Virus record (IMG/VR): IMGVR_UViG_648276647_000010
Coordinates: 1-6,943 of that record
Origin: a virus
Lineage: Duplodnaviria > Heunggongvirae > Uroviricota > Caudoviricetes
Length of the DNA: 6,943 nt
Direction: 5' to 3' (one strand)
Shown here: one piece after another, positions 315-6,943 of the stretch
Numbering within the stretch: the first letter of the stretch is position 1
Layout: each line of letters opens with the position of its first letter
The notes under the pieces: generated by a model
Seen by the model: only the letters and a program-made list of their open reading frames with translations
The model's database searches: none
What the model was told of the DNA's origin: nothing
Program-made: the position numbers and the translations under genes

Positions 315-908
315 GTGCTGATTGGCTATGTAAGGGTATCAACAAATGACCAGAATACAGACCTGCAACGAAACGCTCTTGTTTGTGCAGGATGTGAACA
401 AATATTTGAAGATAAATTAAGCGGAACAAGGACAGACAGACCTGGATTAAAACGCGCTTTAAAGCGCCTTCAAAAAGGTGACACACTGGTTGTCTGGAAA
501 CTGGATCGCCTCGGGCGAAGCATGAAACATTTGATTTCTCTCGTAGGGGAATTACGAGAGCGAGGGATTAATTTTCGCAGTCTTACTGACAGTATTGATA
601 CGTCATCTCCAATGGGGCGTTTTTTCTTCCACGTTATGGGTGCCCTGGCTGAGATGGAACGAGAACTAATCATCGAGCGAACGATGGCAGGACTTGCTGC
701 CGCCAGAAATAAAGGCCGTATTGGTGGGCGACCACCTAAACTAACCAAAGCGGAATGGGAGCAGGCCGGGCGTTTATTAGCACAAGGAATCCCCCGCAAG
801 CAGGTTGCATTGATCTACGATGTGGCCCTGTCAACTCTGTATAAAAAACACCCCGCGAAACGAACGCATATAGAAAACGACGATCGAATCAATCAAATCG
901 ATCGGTAA
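315..908 (+). CDS. gin: Serine-recombinase DNA invertase Gin (G-segment invertase, Hin/Gin/Cin/Pin family)
   Basis: 197-aa ORF starting at GTG 315, with GGAGA Shine-Dalgarno at 304-308. N-terminus MLIGYVRVSTNDQ carries the catalytic Ser9 of the resolvase/invertase domain, and the C-terminus has a helix-turn-helix (GRPPKLTKAEWEQAGRLL...). The sequence matches phage Mu Gin as I recall it. In Mu the Fis-dependent recombinational enhancer lies inside the 5' part of this gene; I could not place it precisely by eye. Confidence 0.9.
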   Translation: MLIGYVRVSTNDQNTDLQRNALVCAGCEQIFEDKLSGTRTDRPGLKRALKRLQKGDTLVVWKLDRLGRSMKHLISLVGELRERGINFRSLTDSIDTSSPMGRFFFHVMGALAEMERELIIERTMAGLAAARNKGRIGGRPPKLTKAEWEQAGRLLAQGIPRKQVALIYDVALSTLYKKHPAKRTHIENDDRINQIDR

Positions 909-990: not shown

Positions 991-1179
991 ATGAAATCAA
1001 TTCGCTGTAAAAACTGCAACAAACTGTTATTTAAGGCGGATTCCTTTGATCACATTGAAATCAGGTGTCCGCGTTGTAAACGTCACATCATAATGCTGAA
1101 TGCCTGCGAGCATCCCACGGAGAAACATTGTGGGAAAAGAGAAGAAATCACGCATTCTGACGAAACCGTGCGTTATTGA
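991..1179 (+). CDS. com: Com, zinc-finger translational activator of mom
   Basis: 62-aa [37 protein letters not shown]... with Cys6/Cys9/Cys26/Cys29 forming the CxxC...CxxC zinc site described for Mu Com. Strong Shine-Dalgarno upstream, and the 3' end overlaps the mom start region as in Mu. Confidence 0.9.
1113..1135 (+). promoter_or_regulatory. mom translation-initiation stem-loop (Com-regulated); sequesters the Shine-Dalgarno and GUG start
   Basis: Perfect 6-bp inverted repeat tcccac (1113-1118) / guggga (1130-1135) around an 11-nt loop ggagaaacauu. The loop contains GGAG (1119-1122) and the stem contains GUG 1130-1132, in frame with the mom ORF. This matches the known mechanism in which Com binds just 5' of a hairpin to unmask mom initiation. 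Confidence 0.55.
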
Positions 1180-1846
1180 GTATGAAGGCCAGATTGTTGG
1201 CTATGGTTCAAAGGAGCTGCGCGTTGAAACCATATCCTGCTGGCTGGCCCGCACAATTATTCAGACAAAGCACTATTCCCGCCGTTTTGTGAATAACTCT
1301 TACCTCCACCTGGGAGTATTCAGCGGACGCGATCTGGTTGGCGTTCTCCAGTGGGGATATGCCCTTAACCCCAACTCAGGTCGTCGTGTCGTGCTTGAAA
1401 CGGATAACCGGGGCTATATGGAGTTGAATCGCATGTGGCTACACGACGACATGCCCCGCAACTCTGAATCACGGGCCATCAGCTACGCGCTGAAAGTTAT
1501 CAGATTACTGTATCCGTCAGTGGAGTGGGTTCAGTCCTTTGCTGACGAACGCTGCGGACGCGCAGGCGTTGTGTATCAGGCGTCGAATTTTGATTTTATT
1601 GGCAGCCATGAAAGCACGTTCTACGAGCTGGATGGTGAGTGGTATCACGAGATAACGATGAACGCGATTAAGCGAGGTGGACAACGAGGCGTGTATTTAC
1701 GGGCTAATAAAGAGCGTGCCGTGGTGCACAAATTTAATCAGTATCGCTACATCAGATTCCTGAACAAGCGAGCAAGGAAGCGGCTAAATACTAAGCTATT
1801 CAGGATCCAACCATATCCAAAATCAATTCTGACTGGTATCAAATAA
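1130..1846 (+). CDS. mom: Mom DNA-modification enzyme (adenine N6 acetamido/carbamoylmethyl modification; acyltransferase-like fold), anti-restriction
   Basis: The ORF immediately follows and overlaps com and has the Mu Mom-like sequence (…[40 protein letters not shown]…). I place the start at GUG 1130, which has a GGAG 7 nt upstream and sits in the regulatory hairpin. The ORF track extends it to ATG 1100, which lacks a Shine-Dalgarno. The exact start and the C-terminus relative to canonical Mu Mom are not verified. Confidence 0.8.
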
Positions 1847-1902
1847 CCTATTTGTTCCTGCTGAAAAACAGCCCCTCATGGCATAAAATTGTTCCCGTGA
1901 GT

Positions 1903-1942
1903 TTAAAATGACCAAGTGGCAGTGCATTATTTGGTCATTTTA
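1903..1942. repeat. Inverted repeat TTAAAATGACCAA-N15-TTGGTCATTTTA (12 of 13 bp symmetric), flanked by direct repeats GTGAGTTTAAAA (1897-1908) and GTGAGTTTTAAA (1947-1958)
   Basis: Seen directly in the sequence. It lies between the mom stop and the next gene. It could be an operator for the downstream gene or a weak AT-rich terminator for the mom transcript; the function is unknown. Confidence 0.4.
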
Positions 1943-1981
1943 TGGGGTGAGTTTTAAAGTCAAAACGATGGTAAGGTGCAT

Positions 1982-2317
1982 ATGAAAAAAATACTCACAG
2001 CAGTACTACTTTGCTTTGGTGTTCTTTCTGCTAATCAGGCAATAGCAGTTGTTACCTTAAGCGGTAAGTATCCAGCATGCATATCTGCTAATGAATTCGA
2101 GCGATTAAGTTCAATTTTGCAACACGAAGATCAAGAAGCATTTGAAGAGATCTTTAAAACATCATGCTTTATGCCTAAAAAGGGGCTAAAAGTTGATAAA
2201 GTGGTTTCTATGGGGTGGACCAGTGGGGTTGCGCATGTCAAAGTTTATGTGAAAGGCAATCTTTACGATCTTTGGACTAACACCGAAAATCTTCAGTCCG
2301 AGAAGGCTGGTAAATAA
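1982..2317 (+). CDS. Hypothetical small secreted protein (Sec signal peptide, ~90-aa mature domain with 2 Cys); AT-rich orphan gene
   Basis: ORF with ATG at 1982 (the track starts it at in-frame GTG 1976) and AAGG at 1973-1976. N-terminus MKKILTAVLLCFGVLSANQAIA is a classic signal peptide with an AxA cleavage motif. GC is about 38% over the first 120 bp versus roughly 50% in the flanking core genes. I recognise no family. Confidence 0.6.
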   Translation: MKKILTAVLLCFGVLSANQAIAVVTLSGKYPACISANEFERLSSILQHEDQEAFEEIFKTSCFMPKKGLKVDKVVSMGWTSGVAHVKVYVKGNLYDLWTNTENLQSEKAGK

Positions 2318-2460
2318 AGCAGTAGTCAACCTGTAATCACATCATCTACCAGCTATCGCCTGATAAAGTTAGGTGATAGCTATTTCAATACTCTCTGGTT
2401 TTACTGGAAGCACGAAACTTAATACTCCCATTCCTGATTGCTTAATAATCAAGCATTTTT

Positions 2461-2526
2461 ATCTTGAATGTTTTTGCTATCACACGCGATAGCCTATCTT
2501 GAATGATTTTCAAAAATATCTTGAAT
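2461..2526. repeat. Three direct copies of ATCTTGAAT(G/A) at 2461, 2497 and 2517, with a GCTATC-N6-GATAGC palindrome at 2476-2493
   Basis: Seen directly in the sequence, in the convergent intergenic region between the orphan gene and the 3' end of opgB. A further inverted repeat AGCTATC-N17-GATAGCT lies at 2352-2382. Confidence 0.35.
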
Positions 2527-2575
2527 AATTTTGCGCGCTTTACGCACCTTATGCGACCTACACATCAGTCAGGAA

Positions 2576-4867
2576 TTACCCTTCACGTTCTACCACTTTA
2601 ATTTCCACCATGCCGATCCCGAGCTTACGCGGCGAGTGCCCGAGGATATTCCCTTCGTTGGTTGAGACAGGTTCCGGCGGCACAATTACCAGTGTGTCGG
2701 CATCGGTTGGGTTATCGAAATGCAGTGTGGTGGTGGTCACTTCATTGCCCAGCACAAGGGTTTGTTCTTCATTGCCTACGCGTACCGGAATAGGACGGCT
2801 GGCGTTATTGCCGTATGCTTTGGCGGTAATCACCAGGTCAAATTTCTTCGGCAGCGGATGCTTGTACTCGATTTTTACTTCATCGCCCAGCTGTGCGTTG
2901 GACCAGCGGCCCCACGACTCTGGACGAGAAATCCCGCTAAACTGTTTCACCTCTTCTGGCGCACCAGCGACGTTAAAGATGAAACTGTCGGCTTTGTAGC
3001 GAATATCGTTATCAACAATCTTTAGCGTATCGACATTGCCTTTGTAACGCGCCATGTCGATGACCGTATCTTTAAATGCCGTTTTGCCCTTCCATATTGC
3101 TTTGTCAACATGCTGAACAATTTGCTGACCGCCAAGCTGCCCTTGCGAGACACACCAGTCGGTGGAGAGTGCCAGTTCCGGAGCCCAGAGTTGTGCCATC
3201 TTGTAGCAACGGTCAACCCAGACGAAATTGTCGCGTGGAGCGAAATCTGCCAGCTGGAAACGCAGCGGTGCTGAGTATTCGCTTTCCGGCAGCGGTTCCA
3301 CGCGTTTGTCTGAAACCCGCAACAGCAGCGGCAAACGGAAATGGCTACCTGAGAAGGCAATCATGTTTTTCTGCTGGTCGATGGTGAACTCTTTCATCTC
3401 TTTAGGGAATTTCCACAGGCGGATGATATCCGGCTTCCACGCCAATGTTTTCTCTTTGATATTGAGGAAGATTTCCGACATTGACTGCCCGGATAAACTG
3501 CTACGGCCAAGTCCGAGATAGTTATCGCCACCGAGAATGTCCAGCACCGTCGCGCCGTTATCCATCGTATTACGCTTCACTGCCAGCGTCTCTTGCTGCG
3601 GCTTGTCGCCACGGATGACAAAAAACAGGTTATTGCGATCCTGCTTATTAAGGTATTTCCACGCCGTATTGTTCATCGCTAAATGGTCAGAAGAGACGAC
3701 GATGACGGTATCTTTAAACCACGGTGACGCTTTGATTTTGTTGATAAACGTCGCAATATTCTCCTGGCTGCAACTTACCGCGCTGAATGACTGATTCGGC
3801 TTACCGTCAAAATCATATTTTTTGCGGTTACAGGTGCGCGAGATAAAACCATCCGGGTGATGGGTATCGACTGTCAGGGTAAACAGTGAGAATCGCTGAC
3901 CTGAGCGGGAAAGCTCTTCAAATTTTTTCCACGCTTCATCGAGAACGGTATCGTCGTAGAATCCCCAGTCGTTGCGATAGTGCGGGTCGGCCACCACGCT
4001 TTTCAGCTCTTCTGAGCCGTATAAGTGGTCGAAGCCGTGCGATTTCAGGAACACATCTTTACCGGCAAAACGCAGATTCGCGCCCTGCACGAAATAGTTC
4101 TGATAACCCGAGTTTTTCAGAATATCGCCCAGACAGATGTTCTGCGGGAAGAAGCTGGAGACAGAGGCGGAGGCGTTGCCTTCAAATGGGGCAAACAGCG
4201 GTATGCCGCACTGAGAAGCTACCATGCCCGCAATCGTGTAATCCGTTCCCGGCAGTTGCTGCGTGTGGCTGAAATCCAGGCCTTCATTTTTCAACGCGCC
4301 CAGTTCAGGCGTGAGATCCGGGAAAGCCTCGTTATCAAAATAGGTCCGCTCGAGACTTTCGCCGTAGATATAAACCAGGTTGAGTTTCGGGTCAGGGATA
4401 GTTCTCGACGGCTCTTTATAATAAGCCGCAAAGTCCGGGTCGCCGTCGCGTGACTGGGATTTCACCAGTTCCGTTATCTGACGAAATGCCGGGCTGGCAT
4501 CCACTGAACCCAGCGCCAGTAAGAGTGCCAGCAGGCTGTAACCAAAATGGTGCGGATGATGGCGACGACGGCGCAGGATCCAGCCCAGCGCACCGAACAC
4601 CGCCGTCAGCCCCAGCACAATGCCGATACCCGGCAGGATGTATTTGCTGACGCCAGCACCGGTCAGGCTGTTGGTTAAGGTATAGAGAACCGCGTCGTTA
4701 ATACCATCGCCAGTAAAATAGTCGCTGGCAAACAGGGTGATATTTAAAACGACAAATAGCCCCAGCACCGTTAACGTGGCTGCAAACCACCAGGTGTTAC
4801 GTCCCGCTTTCCATGCGTAAATCAGCACAGAGGCGAGAAAAAGGGCGAAAGAGAGTAGTTCTGACAA
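2576..4867 (-). CDS. opgB: Phosphoglycerol transferase I (osmoregulated periplasmic glucan biosynthesis; sulfatase/LTA-synthase-like membrane enzyme)
   Basis: 763-aa ORF with N-terminal transmembrane helices ([20 protein letters not shown]..., [15 protein letters not shown]..., [19 protein letters not shown]) followed by a large periplasmic sulfatase-type domain. Length and sequence match E. coli MdoB/OpgB as I recall it, and the position downstream of yjjA-dnaC-dnaT matches the E. coli gene order. Confidence 0.9.
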
Positions 4868-5120
4868 CGGGCGATCCTCACTAAACCGGGCCGTTTAGCC
4901 AACGTTTAAGCTTTTTGAGAAGCACAATGTAATGGCGTCGCCATATTGCTGCAATTCTAGTGTCAAAAAAATGCGACGTTGTTAGGAATTAGTTTATAAA
5001 CAGACTTTTTTGATCGCGGTCGCTTCCCGTGTAACAGGGGTAAAACCGTCCAGGAGCAGGGAAAAGGGCAGGAGAGAGCCGCGTCAGCCGGGTAACAGCT
5101 AAAACGCGGCGTTTCGCGGT

Positions 5121-5618
5121 TCAGGAAATGAAGTTCAGCCCCTGCTTTAATACTAGATCGCAGGCTTTGGTTTTCACCTTTTCTGCCAGCGGAGTCGTTC
5201 CAATATTATCCAGATTGAGTTGCTGACCATCTTTGGTTTTCAGCAAACCCTGAATGCCATCCAGATAGTTGGTGTCTTCTTTTTGCTCTTCACTGTTCAG
5301 GCCCAGTTTTTCCAGTACCTGATTCTTGATGTTTTCGGCATCGGTTACCGAAGCCAGCTTTTGCTTCGCACAGTATTGCAGAATGCCTGCGGCGTTGTTC
5401 ATGTTATCTGCGCTTAAGGCCTGGTTCCCGCTGCTAAGCAAGTTAGTTAATGACGCGAGCGACCAACCGCCTTCCTGTGTCGTGTTGTTTTGGTTGCCAA
5501 GTTCGCTGGCGGCGCTGGAGAGCGCATCTTTCCAGGACGCAGCATGCACCCCGGTGGAAATTAATGCGCTGGCGGCAATGGCACAGCACAGAAGATGTTT
5601 AATAGTTTTCATCATCAT
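5121..5618 (-). CDS. yjjA: Conserved secreted protein YjjA (DUF2501 family)
   Basis: 165-aa ORF with signal peptide (MMMKTIKHLLCCAIAASALISTGVHA). It lies between dnaC and opgB as in E. coli. The true start may be the 2nd or 3rd of the three tandem ATG codons. Confidence 0.75.
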   Translation of the reverse strand: MMMKTIKHLLCCAIAASALISTGVHAASWKDALSSAASELGNQNNTTQEGGWSLASLTNLLSSGNQALSADNMNNAAGILQYCAKQKLASVTDAENIKNQVLEKLGLNSEEQKEDTNYLDGIQGLLKTKDGQQLNLDNIGTTPLAEKVKTKACDLVLKQGLNFIS

Positions 5619-5663
5619 TACTCAAGGTTGAATTGTGTCGCAGTATACCGCCAGAAACGGGGA

Positions 5664-6401
5664 TTAATACTCTTTACCTGTTACACGGCTACGGTAGCTA
5701 TCCCAGTTGAAGATCACCCACAAACTGTTACCCAGGCGCATACGGTCCATCACGCGTTCGCCCAGCAACTTGGTCATCTCTTCCATATTACTGTTGGTCA
5801 GCATCCCGGTTGGGCGTTTGGAAGAAGAGCGGCGATCGACGATCTGGTTGATGATCACTTTTTCGTATTTCGATTCGGTCTGCACGCCGATCTCATCGAT
5901 CACCAGCAGATCAACGTTACTCAGATCGTTAAGCAGTTGTTCTTCGCTGGTACCGCTATTCCTGAAGGTATCTTTCATCGCCGACATAATATCGGCCACG
6001 GTGATGATCAATACGGATTTACCGCGTAGCAGCAGCTCGTTGCAGATTGCCGCCGCCAGATGGTTTTTGCCGGTTCCTGGCTTGCCAGAAAAGATGAAGC
6101 TGGCGATGTTGCCGTCAAACTCTTCGACATACTGGCGCGCTTTGCTTAACGCATTCATCTGCCCTTCACACTCAACGCGATAGTTCTCAAAGGAGCAGTT
6201 CTGATGCAGTGGACGAATACCGGAGCGGTTAAAGGTGCGCTGCATTTTCATCGCCCGATTTTCACGTTCGAGAGCGGCGGAGCGGATCGCCCCTTGTTCT
6301 TTCTGCCAGGCCAGTAATTCTTCACCCGTTTTGAACGCAGGTTTGATATGGGCAGGCATCATTTTTTGCAGGCGTTGCATCAGGTCGCCAACGTTTTTCA
6401 T
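5664..6401 (-). CDS. dnaC: Replicative helicase loader DnaC (AAA+ ATPase)
   Basis: 245-aa ORF with Walker A motif GKPGTGKNHLAAAI and Walker B-like LLVIDEIG. The sequence matches E. coli DnaC, and the start lies 2 bp from the dnaT stop, indicating an operon. Confidence 0.95.
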   Translation of the reverse strand: MKNVGDLMQRLQKMMPAHIKPAFKTGEELLAWQKEQGAIRSAALERENRAMKMQRTFNRSGIRPLHQNCSFENYRVECEGQMNALSKARQYVEEFDGNIASFIFSGKPGTGKNHLAAAICNELLLRGKSVLIITVADIMSAMKDTFRNSGTSEEQLLNDLSNVDLLVIDEIGVQTESKYEKVIINQIVDRRSSSKRPTGMLTNSNMEEMTKLLGERVMDRMRLGNSLWVIFNWDSYRSRVTGKEY

Positions 6402-6403
6402 CG

Positions 6404-6943
6404 TTACCCTCTGAATCCTGGTGGAATTTGGCTGTCAGGTTCACTGACCGTATTCACATCTCGTTTCGGCAGTCCGCCGTTGCTGGCACGACCGATTTGC
6501 AGGCTGCGCGCCAGTTTTTGTTGCCACTGCACATGGTGAAAGACTTTGCCTTCCGCCTGCCAGTAGGCAATGAATGACGCCAGTTCTTCGGCGGTCACCG
6601 GCTCTCTTAGTGCCACGCCCCATAGCGCCGCCAGGCGGATAAAGTCGGCATCGGGTTGCCAGTCCGGATACATGGCAAATTTCCCCATGGGTACGGCAAC
6701 GGGAGCGGTTTGCGGTTCCTGATAGAGTTGATCGTCCAGGGCCACGTCACTTCCCGGACGCGCCAGCTTTTCTTCCAGCGCCAGCAGTTCAGCCAGGCGT
6801 GCAGGCGTGATGGCATAAAACGCCGGGGCATTGTTAGCAAATACGGCAACCACACCGCCTTCAGCTTTTGCCAGAACGGTTTGGTGATCGTGTACCAGGG
6901 CGTCAATACCAACGACGTCCGGGGTCAAAACTCTGGAAGACAT
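6404..6943 (-). CDS. dnaT: Primosomal protein 1 (DnaT)
   Basis: 179-aa ORF ([30 protein letters not shown]...) immediately upstream of and co-directional with dnaC. Its ATG is the reverse complement of the last three bases of the window, so the CDS is complete but its promoter is outside the window. Confidence 0.9.

Follow-up and report, generated by a model that had tools for sequence, protein, structure and literature searches.

An orphan gene at the right end of a Mu-like Escherichia coli prophage, a probable moron for a small exported protein

Next to opgB in Escherichia coli, a short AT-rich open reading frame lies downstream of a Mu-like gin-com-mom module, and it raises the question of whether this orphan gene belongs to the host or to the phage and what kind of protein it encodes. 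The window considered here is the whole stretch of DNA that was analyzed, 6,943 nucleotides from IMG/VR record IMGVR_UViG_648276647_000010. Positions 2543–6943 hold the opgB-yjjA-dnaC-dnaT region and are 99.4–100% identical to the best-matching complete E. coli genomes. DNA at about 206–1846 matches the gin-com-mom DNA of phages Mu, SfMu, and D108 at 97–98% identity, as it does that of Yersinia Mu-like phages (Table 1). The equivalent of com carries a Com annotation in Mu and D108, and the mom gene of the window has a C-terminal extension like that of D108. The start of mom was set at 1130, in a frame open from 1100, to match the equivalent start in the gene calls of L005–L023.

Table 1. Features of the window around the orphan gene
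Feature	Position	Strand	Basis
gin-type DNA invertase of Mu-like prophage	315..908	+	Pfam Resolvase 7e-50 plus HTH_7
com, translational activator of mom	991..1179	+	Pfam Zn_ribbon_Com 2.4e-09
mom, DNA modification gene	1130..1846	+	Pfam Mom 2.8e-75, PHROG 1384
Only sigma-70-like promoter match 5' of orphan gene, CTGAAA-17-TAAAAT, 9/12	1861..1889	+	Weak
Inverted repeat 3' of mom and 5' of orphan gene, perfect 12-bp arms (TAAAATGACCAA, 15 nt, TTGGTCATTTTA)	1904..1942	.	
Shine-Dalgarno-like TAAGGTG, just 5' of ATG	1972..1978	+	Read from sequence
Orphan CDS, 111 aa, identical to WP_000722923.1	1982..2317	+	ORF, homologue, and codon analysis
Predicted Sec/SPase I signal peptide, residues 1–22, cut between AIA and VV	1982..2047	+	Inspection, hydropathy scan
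Mature domain, 89 aa: beta strand, two helices, four-strand SH3-like barrel (predicted)	2048..2314	+	
Stem-loop 3' of CDS, AGCTATCGCCT / AGGTGATAGCT, candidate terminator, poor T-run	2351..2381	+	
Three direct repeats of TATCTTGAATnnTTTT (2460, 2495, 2517; spacing 35 and 22 bp)	2460..2534	+	Repeat scan
Prophage right terminus, ...GCGCGCTTTA	2535..2542	+	Ten host junctions in L005–L014; core identity from 2543
Host intergenic DNA, remnant of 12-bp-stem hairpin split by insertion	2543..2575	.	Uninterrupted Rb-23, L004 2990–3030
opgB, E. coli core gene outside the element	2576..4867	-	Pfam and core-genome identity

An earlier reading of the sequence alone had proposed a small gene for a protein of ~111 residues here, and its coordinates and length are borne out; the gene has an ATG start and a Shine-Dalgarno motif. 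The reading frame opens with the ATG at 1982 and closes with a stop codon at 2315–2317; a GTG at 1976 is another possible start and would give 113 residues. The low GC content that had been remarked upon (~38%, below the flanks) is also real, with 38.7% measured for the orphan gene and 37.8% for the whole 1847–2542 segment against 49–52% in the flanks (mom 49.1%, opgB 51.7%, dnaC 50.7%). The composition also differs from that of the neighboring phage gene gin, which has 46.8%. The protein has an exact match in RefSeq, WP_000722923.1, recorded as "hypothetical protein [Escherichia coli]." Comparison with six homologues from other phages gives dN/dS values of 0.08–0.24 (Nei-Gojobori, where dS is not saturated), and the gene differs from its counterpart in a second Mu-like lineage, described below, by 10 synonymous and three nonsynonymous changes. 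Because an exact RefSeq protein exists and dN/dS is this low, the frame is more than a chance ORF, and the codon comparisons indicate a real gene under purifying selection. At 90% identity, the protein clusters with entries from E. coli, Shigella flexneri, Shigella boydii (often truncated), Salmonella, and Cronobacter. Many of the S. flexneri and S. boydii entries, including that of S. flexneri 5a M90T, are truncated or partial (67–78 residues), which would fit decay of a prophage remnant in that lineage.

The gene had been described as wedged between the phage module and opgB. That placement needs correction, as the element runs to 2542 and the gene therefore lies inside the prophage. Ten contigs that encode the exact orphan protein all have gin, com, and mom directly upstream of it, and all finish in ...TATCTTGAAT(x3)...TTTTGCGCGCTTTA before running into ten different host sequences, which include a TonB-receptor gene, fliK, gyrA, eutC, a conjugative-plasmid tra region, and opgB. 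Wherever a contig is long enough, baseplate and tail-fibre genes are found beyond gin-com-mom, and a Gp48 gene is also upstream. The second lineage, with a 97%-identical protein (P0001, 612 contigs), was seen at 11 further junctions with a variant end, for 21 distinct host junctions in total. Because the core genome resumes at 2543 and the same end abuts ten sites, the orphan gene is the last gene of a Mu-like prophage, and this carrier has what a Mu-like transposable prophage should have: Mu-type late genes, a constant terminus, and many unrelated sites of insertion. Horizontal acquisition, which had been argued from composition, is supported both by the low GC content and by the absence of the 1847–2542 segment from 5,425 of 5,426 complete E. 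coli genomes.

The right end of this prophage is not that of Mu. The canonical Mu end, with MuA sites and a final ...CA, is absent from the window, which has no Mu attR and in which the element stops with ...GCGCGCTTTA after the TATCTTGAAT repeats. The terminal dinucleotide is TA, versus CA in Mu (...CGCCGCTTCA), and is constant over 10 independent insertions. The same type of right end is found at 2460–2542 of the window, in L005–L014, and in three other contigs (L076 4860–4949, L054 996–1090, and L055 2899–2946). The TATCTTGAATnnTTTT repeats are presumed to be transposase-binding sites of a non-Mu-type end. Together, the constant TA end and the divergent repeats suggest that the transposase of this Mu-like lineage differs in its site specificity; the late region next to this divergent end shows 97% identity to that of Mu. 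An assignment of the TATCTTGAAT repeats as arm sites for a P2-type Int was considered and rejected, since the same repeats terminate Mu-like prophages at random sites.

The second lineage includes strain 2014C-3075, the only complete E. coli genome (1 of 5,426) with the segment. Its end (L001 12469–12760 and L015–L024, at the same offsets) was compared with that of Mu (L033 1685–1818). A single copy of TATCTTGAAT is present. Directly beyond ...GCGCGCTTTA come the 3'-terminal 15 nt of a Mu-type mom, then the spacer of Mu, and finally a canonical Mu attR, which ends in ...CGCCGCTTCA. As judged from this alignment, the junction resembles a scar left when a window-type phage transposed into the 3' end of mom of a resident Mu, with homologous recombination between the two phages, it would seem, coming afterwards. 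A 57-bp deletion between TTTTGC direct repeats accounts for the one repeat that is left.

Comparison with close relatives indicates how the gene sits in the phage. Mu, SfMu, and D108 do not have it despite the 97–98% identity of their gin-com-mom DNA, and in Mu and SfMu the distance from mom to attR is covered in about 115 bp. Two IMG/VR Mu-like prophages (L076 and L054) have the TATCTTGAAT-type right end and are likewise without the gene, with mom followed by a canonical terminator and then by the three repeats. Because the repeats terminate these prophages too, they are the native right end of a Mu-like lineage, which confines the cargo proper to about 1847–2459. These two prophages (L076 3424–4950 and L054 1122–2521) also seem to be without gin between a G-segment tail-fibre fragment and com, and that in L076 adjoins a P2-type terminase gene and so appears to be inserted in another prophage. 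D108 has gp56 ("D108-specific protein," L034 1798–2244) in this slot; its start directly follows the D108-type mom stop codon, and a Mu-type right end comes after it. Like the orphan protein, gp56 has a signal-peptide-like N-terminus (MKKSKLLISTIISLFVLTASSVNHA), but it is longer (148 residues) and unrelated in sequence. This shared feature suggests that the slot collects exported-protein cargo, and from these sequence comparisons the mom-to-right-end interval of Mu-like phages behaves as a cargo slot. The earlier suggestion of a phage moron or cargo gene downstream of mom is thus well supported, since the gene always follows gin-com-mom in the Mu-like prophages of the two lineages (21 junctions) and close relatives (Mu, SfMu, D108, L076, and L054) do not have it at the same position.

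The gene is not confined to Mu-like phages. In P2-like phages, the interval from ogr to attP/int contains homologues of about 50–70% identity; the carriers identified, with 57–70% identity, are Yersinia phage vB_YenM_42.18, an IMG/VR contig, and prophages of Rouxiella and Kosakonia. Another homologue (P0013, 53% identity, 878 Salmonella contigs) always has gemA on one side and mor on the other in a Mu-like prophage and is encoded on the opposite strand; a further 53% homologue, in IMG/VR, shows the same arrangement. Remote members, of about 30% identity, are found on a siphovirus-like contig and on a primase-bearing element beside csrA. DNA similarity between these contexts is confined to the ORF, and the comparisons indicate that the family moves between unrelated temperate-phage backbones. 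Whether the gene travels with Mu-like phages had been posed as a check; it does so in the two lineages with the window protein or its 97%-identical counterpart, and the family is also carried by P2-like and other phages. Of similarly remote identity are two 234-residue paralogues in one metagenomic phage (L088 4828–5532 and 5946–6650), antisense in a portal-protease head module, that combine the SH3-like domain described below with a C-terminal extension of ~120 residues without a Pfam match.

Searches beyond these contexts show how the family is distributed. A profile search of 1.84 billion cluster representatives returned at least 150 clusters of the family (E ≤ 1e-3); almost all have 95–120 residues and match over their full length, and a few have an added C-terminal extension. 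Among 185,579 GTDB species-representative genomes, the close subfamily was found at a single locus, in Kosakonia, which fits a sporadic, phage-borne distribution. The phage collection gave no DNA match to 1847–2542 and one real match by protein, a P2-like Yersinia phage; a Vibrio phage protein was disregarded as nonsignificant (E = 0.3). No copy of the segment was found in the plasmid collection.

No known family had been recognized in the protein, and the searches agree: the orphan protein has no significant family in Pfam, NCBIfam, PHROGs, or PADLOC, and a profile of the family found nothing among PDB sequences. When 89 relatives were compared with Pfam and NCBIfam, matches were limited to the N-terminal zinc ribbons of fused members and scattered noise. 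The nearest described group is PHROG 29411 (function unknown), which is matched by 41 of the 89 members (best E = 2.9e-18). The window protein itself aligns to it at E = 0.13, with residues 2–103 on profile positions 2–105 of 107. The two are alike in having ~100 residues with a signal peptide and in aligning end to end; they differ in that the enterobacterial subfamily of the window protein is a divergent branch. No homology to known superinfection-exclusion or defense families was found in PADLOC or PHROG, and five family members gave no PADLOC defense-model matches. The only "Sie-like" PHROG match is weak (E = 4e-4), comes from one distant fused member, and falls largely on its membrane anchor, extending into the first part of the domain. 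Neither Rfam nor a tRNA scan, run on 1700–2650 and on the window, gave anything above noise (tsr1, 19 bits against a gathering score of 235). In the literature, no paper naming accession WP_000722923 was found, and keyword searches, with term look-ups in the SfMu and prophage-transcriptome papers, gave nothing on the mom-to-right-end slot or on the orphan family. The family is uncharacterized; a prophage moron for a small exported protein is, as a kind, well known.

The clear signal peptide that had been noted is upheld by inspection and hydropathy. The N-terminus reads MKK-ILTAVLLCFGVL-SANQAIA before the predicted cleavage site and VV after it, with recognizable n-, h-, and c-regions and alanine at −3 and −1, that is, an AXA site. 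An N-terminal Lys/Arg and a hydrophobic stretch are features of 85 of the 89 family members. We strongly infer from these features that the 111-residue precursor passes through Sec and is cut after AIA22 to give a ~10 kDa periplasmic protein (predicted mature form 89 residues, 10.0 kDa, pI 6.9). A lipoprotein was also considered. Inspection of the N-terminus showed no lipobox, and the third cysteine of the protein, Cys11, which sits in the signal peptide, is not conserved, and this reading was dropped. In a few family members, a zinc ribbon and a membrane-spanning anchor take the place of the signal peptide, an arrangement that would still put the domain outside the cytoplasm.

The mature part contains two cysteines, as had been stated, and both are nearly invariant in the family (Cys33, 2078–2080, and Cys62, 2165–2167, each kept in 87 of 89 members, or 98%). 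Other conserved positions among the 89 relatives are Asp50 (93%), Trp98 and Thr99 (87% each), and Tyr89 (82%); residue 87 is lysine in the window protein and arginine in 88% of relatives. Asp50, Lys87, Tyr89, Trp98, Thr99, and Glu102 count as conserved residues of the surface. The resulting family signature consists of the signal peptide, L-K-G-G-Y-x-A-C-x-S-E, a first helix, and D, followed by a second helix, G-C, K-V-R-x-Y, and L-W-T-x-x-E-N. Structure prediction, which had been recommended as a check, gave a confident AlphaFold2 model from the 89-sequence alignment (mean pLDDT of 89, core 94–98), with a short strand, helices at residues 36–47 and 51–60, and a four-strand barrel that is SH3-like. 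In this model, Cys33 and Cys62 sit on two-residue strands (32–33 and 62–63) that probably pair with each other, which would bring the cysteines side by side and fits a disulfide. On the basis of secondary structure and conservation, a Cys33–Cys62 disulfide probably staples the base of the two-helix hairpin.

The structures closest to the model are the SH3b domains of NlpC/P60 murein endopeptidases and autolysins (Protein Data Bank codes 3h41, 3m1u, 6sqx, 6bim, and 7pj3), at a sequence identity of 8–18% and with no match to a Pfam SH3 family. The window protein has no match to Pfam SH3 families at E ≤ 1, and the conserved domain of the 89 relatives has none at E ≤ 0.01. Because the sequence falls outside these families, we call the protein SH3-like and stop short of assigning it to SH3b. 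Two further differences stand out: SH3b domains pack against NlpC/P60 catalytic domains, whereas the window protein is a lone domain without a catalytic partner, and only the orphan family has the helical hairpin and, with it, the conserved pair of cysteines. The model thus portrays an SH3-like module that stands alone, has a hairpin of helices peculiar to the family, and shows no sign of a catalytic site, and a role for it as a binding module is reasonably probable.

Signals for expression of the gene are weak or ambiguous. The one promoter match upstream compares with 2.8 in shuffled sequences and is not significant on its own. The operator-like inverted repeat that had been noted between mom and the orphan gene is present, with an RNA fold of −17 kcal/mol (z = −2.6). 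In the second lineage, its arms are identical and its 15-nt loop has three substitutions, a pattern that suggests selection on pairing or on half-sites. Weak termination of mom, a hairpin in the 5'-UTR, and an operator are the candidate roles for the repeat, so the operator stands as one among several. The stem-loop downstream of the gene is more stable (−22.5 kcal/mol, z = −4.0, with 0 of 200 shuffles as stable) and is identical in the second lineage; a terminator scan did not call it. The orphan gene has the same orientation as mom, 135 bp away, with no canonical terminator between them, and in this prophage it could therefore be expressed late in the lytic cycle. Homologues that lie antisense to lytic operons, on the other hand, would need a promoter of their own in those phages.

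Taken as a phage moron that encodes an exported protein, an identification we consider very likely, the orphan would be a self-contained accessory gene located after mom and before the right transposition end, and its absence from Mu and D108 suggests that it is dispensable for lytic growth. Its product would be a periplasmic protein of ~10 kDa with one SH3-like β-barrel and a disulfide-stapled two-helix hairpin; moron, export, and SH3-like binding module taken together are favored with moderate confidence. With low confidence, we propose that the protein acts as a nonenzymatic binding module on the cell envelope of the lysogen. As the nearest structures are peptidoglycan- or stem-peptide-binding SH3b domains, the target could be murein or a periplasmic protein working on murein, and binding would alter events in the periplasm. 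The most likely outcome would be that superinfecting phages are blocked at cell-wall penetration or DNA delivery, although superinfection exclusion as the phenotype is a tentative suggestion that may well prove wrong. HK97 gp15, T4 Spackle, T5 Llp, and Cor are also small, envelope-targeted products of single genes at variable phage positions; no relationship in sequence or fold was found between them and the orphan protein.

Two other roles for an exported protein deserve attention. The product could act in lysogenic conversion, shielding the host wall against peptidoglycan hydrolases that come from outside (lysozymes, type VI amidase effectors, or bacteriocins) or raising envelope stress tolerance or virulence. 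The SH3b-like fold, the export, and the probable disulfide would suit such a protein, and the closest structures are SH3b domains packed on NlpC/P60 catalytic domains, the superfamily to which known type VI amidase effectors belong. The gene is also widespread in the pathogen lineages E. coli, Shigella, Salmonella, and Cronobacter. Homology to known lysozyme-inhibitor or immunity families is absent, however, no effector or partner gene is consistently adjacent, and truncation in many S. flexneri genomes means that the gene is dispensable there, so we regard this role as unlikely. Less likely still is a late lytic protein, made by read-through from the C-dependent mom promoter and acting in the periplasm at lysis or release, for example on endolysin or spanin action or on lysis timing. 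The arrangement with mom described above would allow it, in relatives without the gene a strong terminator immediately follows mom, and the SH3b fold is typical of the cell-wall-binding domains of endolysins. Yet homologues run antisense to lytic operons in Salmonella and other Mu-like prophages, and to a structural module, and Mu, D108, and SfMu lyse without the gene.

The remaining explanations would deny that there is a cargo gene at all. A spurious or decaying ORF in AT-rich filler DNA by the prophage end would account for the missing family annotation and for the truncated Shigella copies, but it is hard to reconcile with the dN/dS values, the number and divergence of the family clusters, the retention of both cysteines and of Trp98 and Thr99, and the confident fold prediction, which effectively refute it. 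That the gene is a core E. coli periplasmic gene merely neighboring the prophage is the least credible reading of all. Only its position next to opgB would favor it; in uninterrupted strains, lgoD runs to opgB without the gene, nearly all complete genomes are without it, and it travels to 21 sites, and this candidate was rejected.

Superinfection exclusion, immunity, and virulence are functions that the exported products of prophage cargo genes are proven to supply, and this family is compact (about 89 mature residues), sits in accessory slots of several temperate-phage types in E. coli, Shigella, Salmonella, Cronobacter, and other bacteria, and carries no annotation. It is a cheap, well-defined candidate for plasmid-expression screening against phage panels and cell-wall stresses. 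If murein or a murein-acting protein is bound, the family might provide a new kind of envelope-level protection against superinfecting phages or peptidoglycan-hydrolase toxins, with Mu-like, P2-like, and siphovirus-like temperate phages exchanging the genes as cassettes. It is speculative, and on balance improbable, that this amounts to a widespread and unrecognized class of phage-borne periplasmic SH3-like envelope-protection proteins, swapped as single-gene cassettes. The cargo slot and the divergent transposition end of the Mu-like lineage should both help in calling prophage boundaries.

The insertion may also have affected the host genes that flank it. In Rb-23, a strain in which the site is uninterrupted, the gap between lgoD and opgB is a short spacer that holds a perfect hairpin with a 12-bp stem. 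The hairpin lies between the two convergent genes and consists of GTGTAGGTCGCA, CCTTA, and TGCGACCTACAC. In the window, the foreign DNA stops inside the left arm of this hairpin, with host identity from 2543, and the insertion probably destroys a terminator common to lgoD and opgB. With this shared terminator lost, transcription from opgB may enter the end of the prophage, antisense to the orphan gene.
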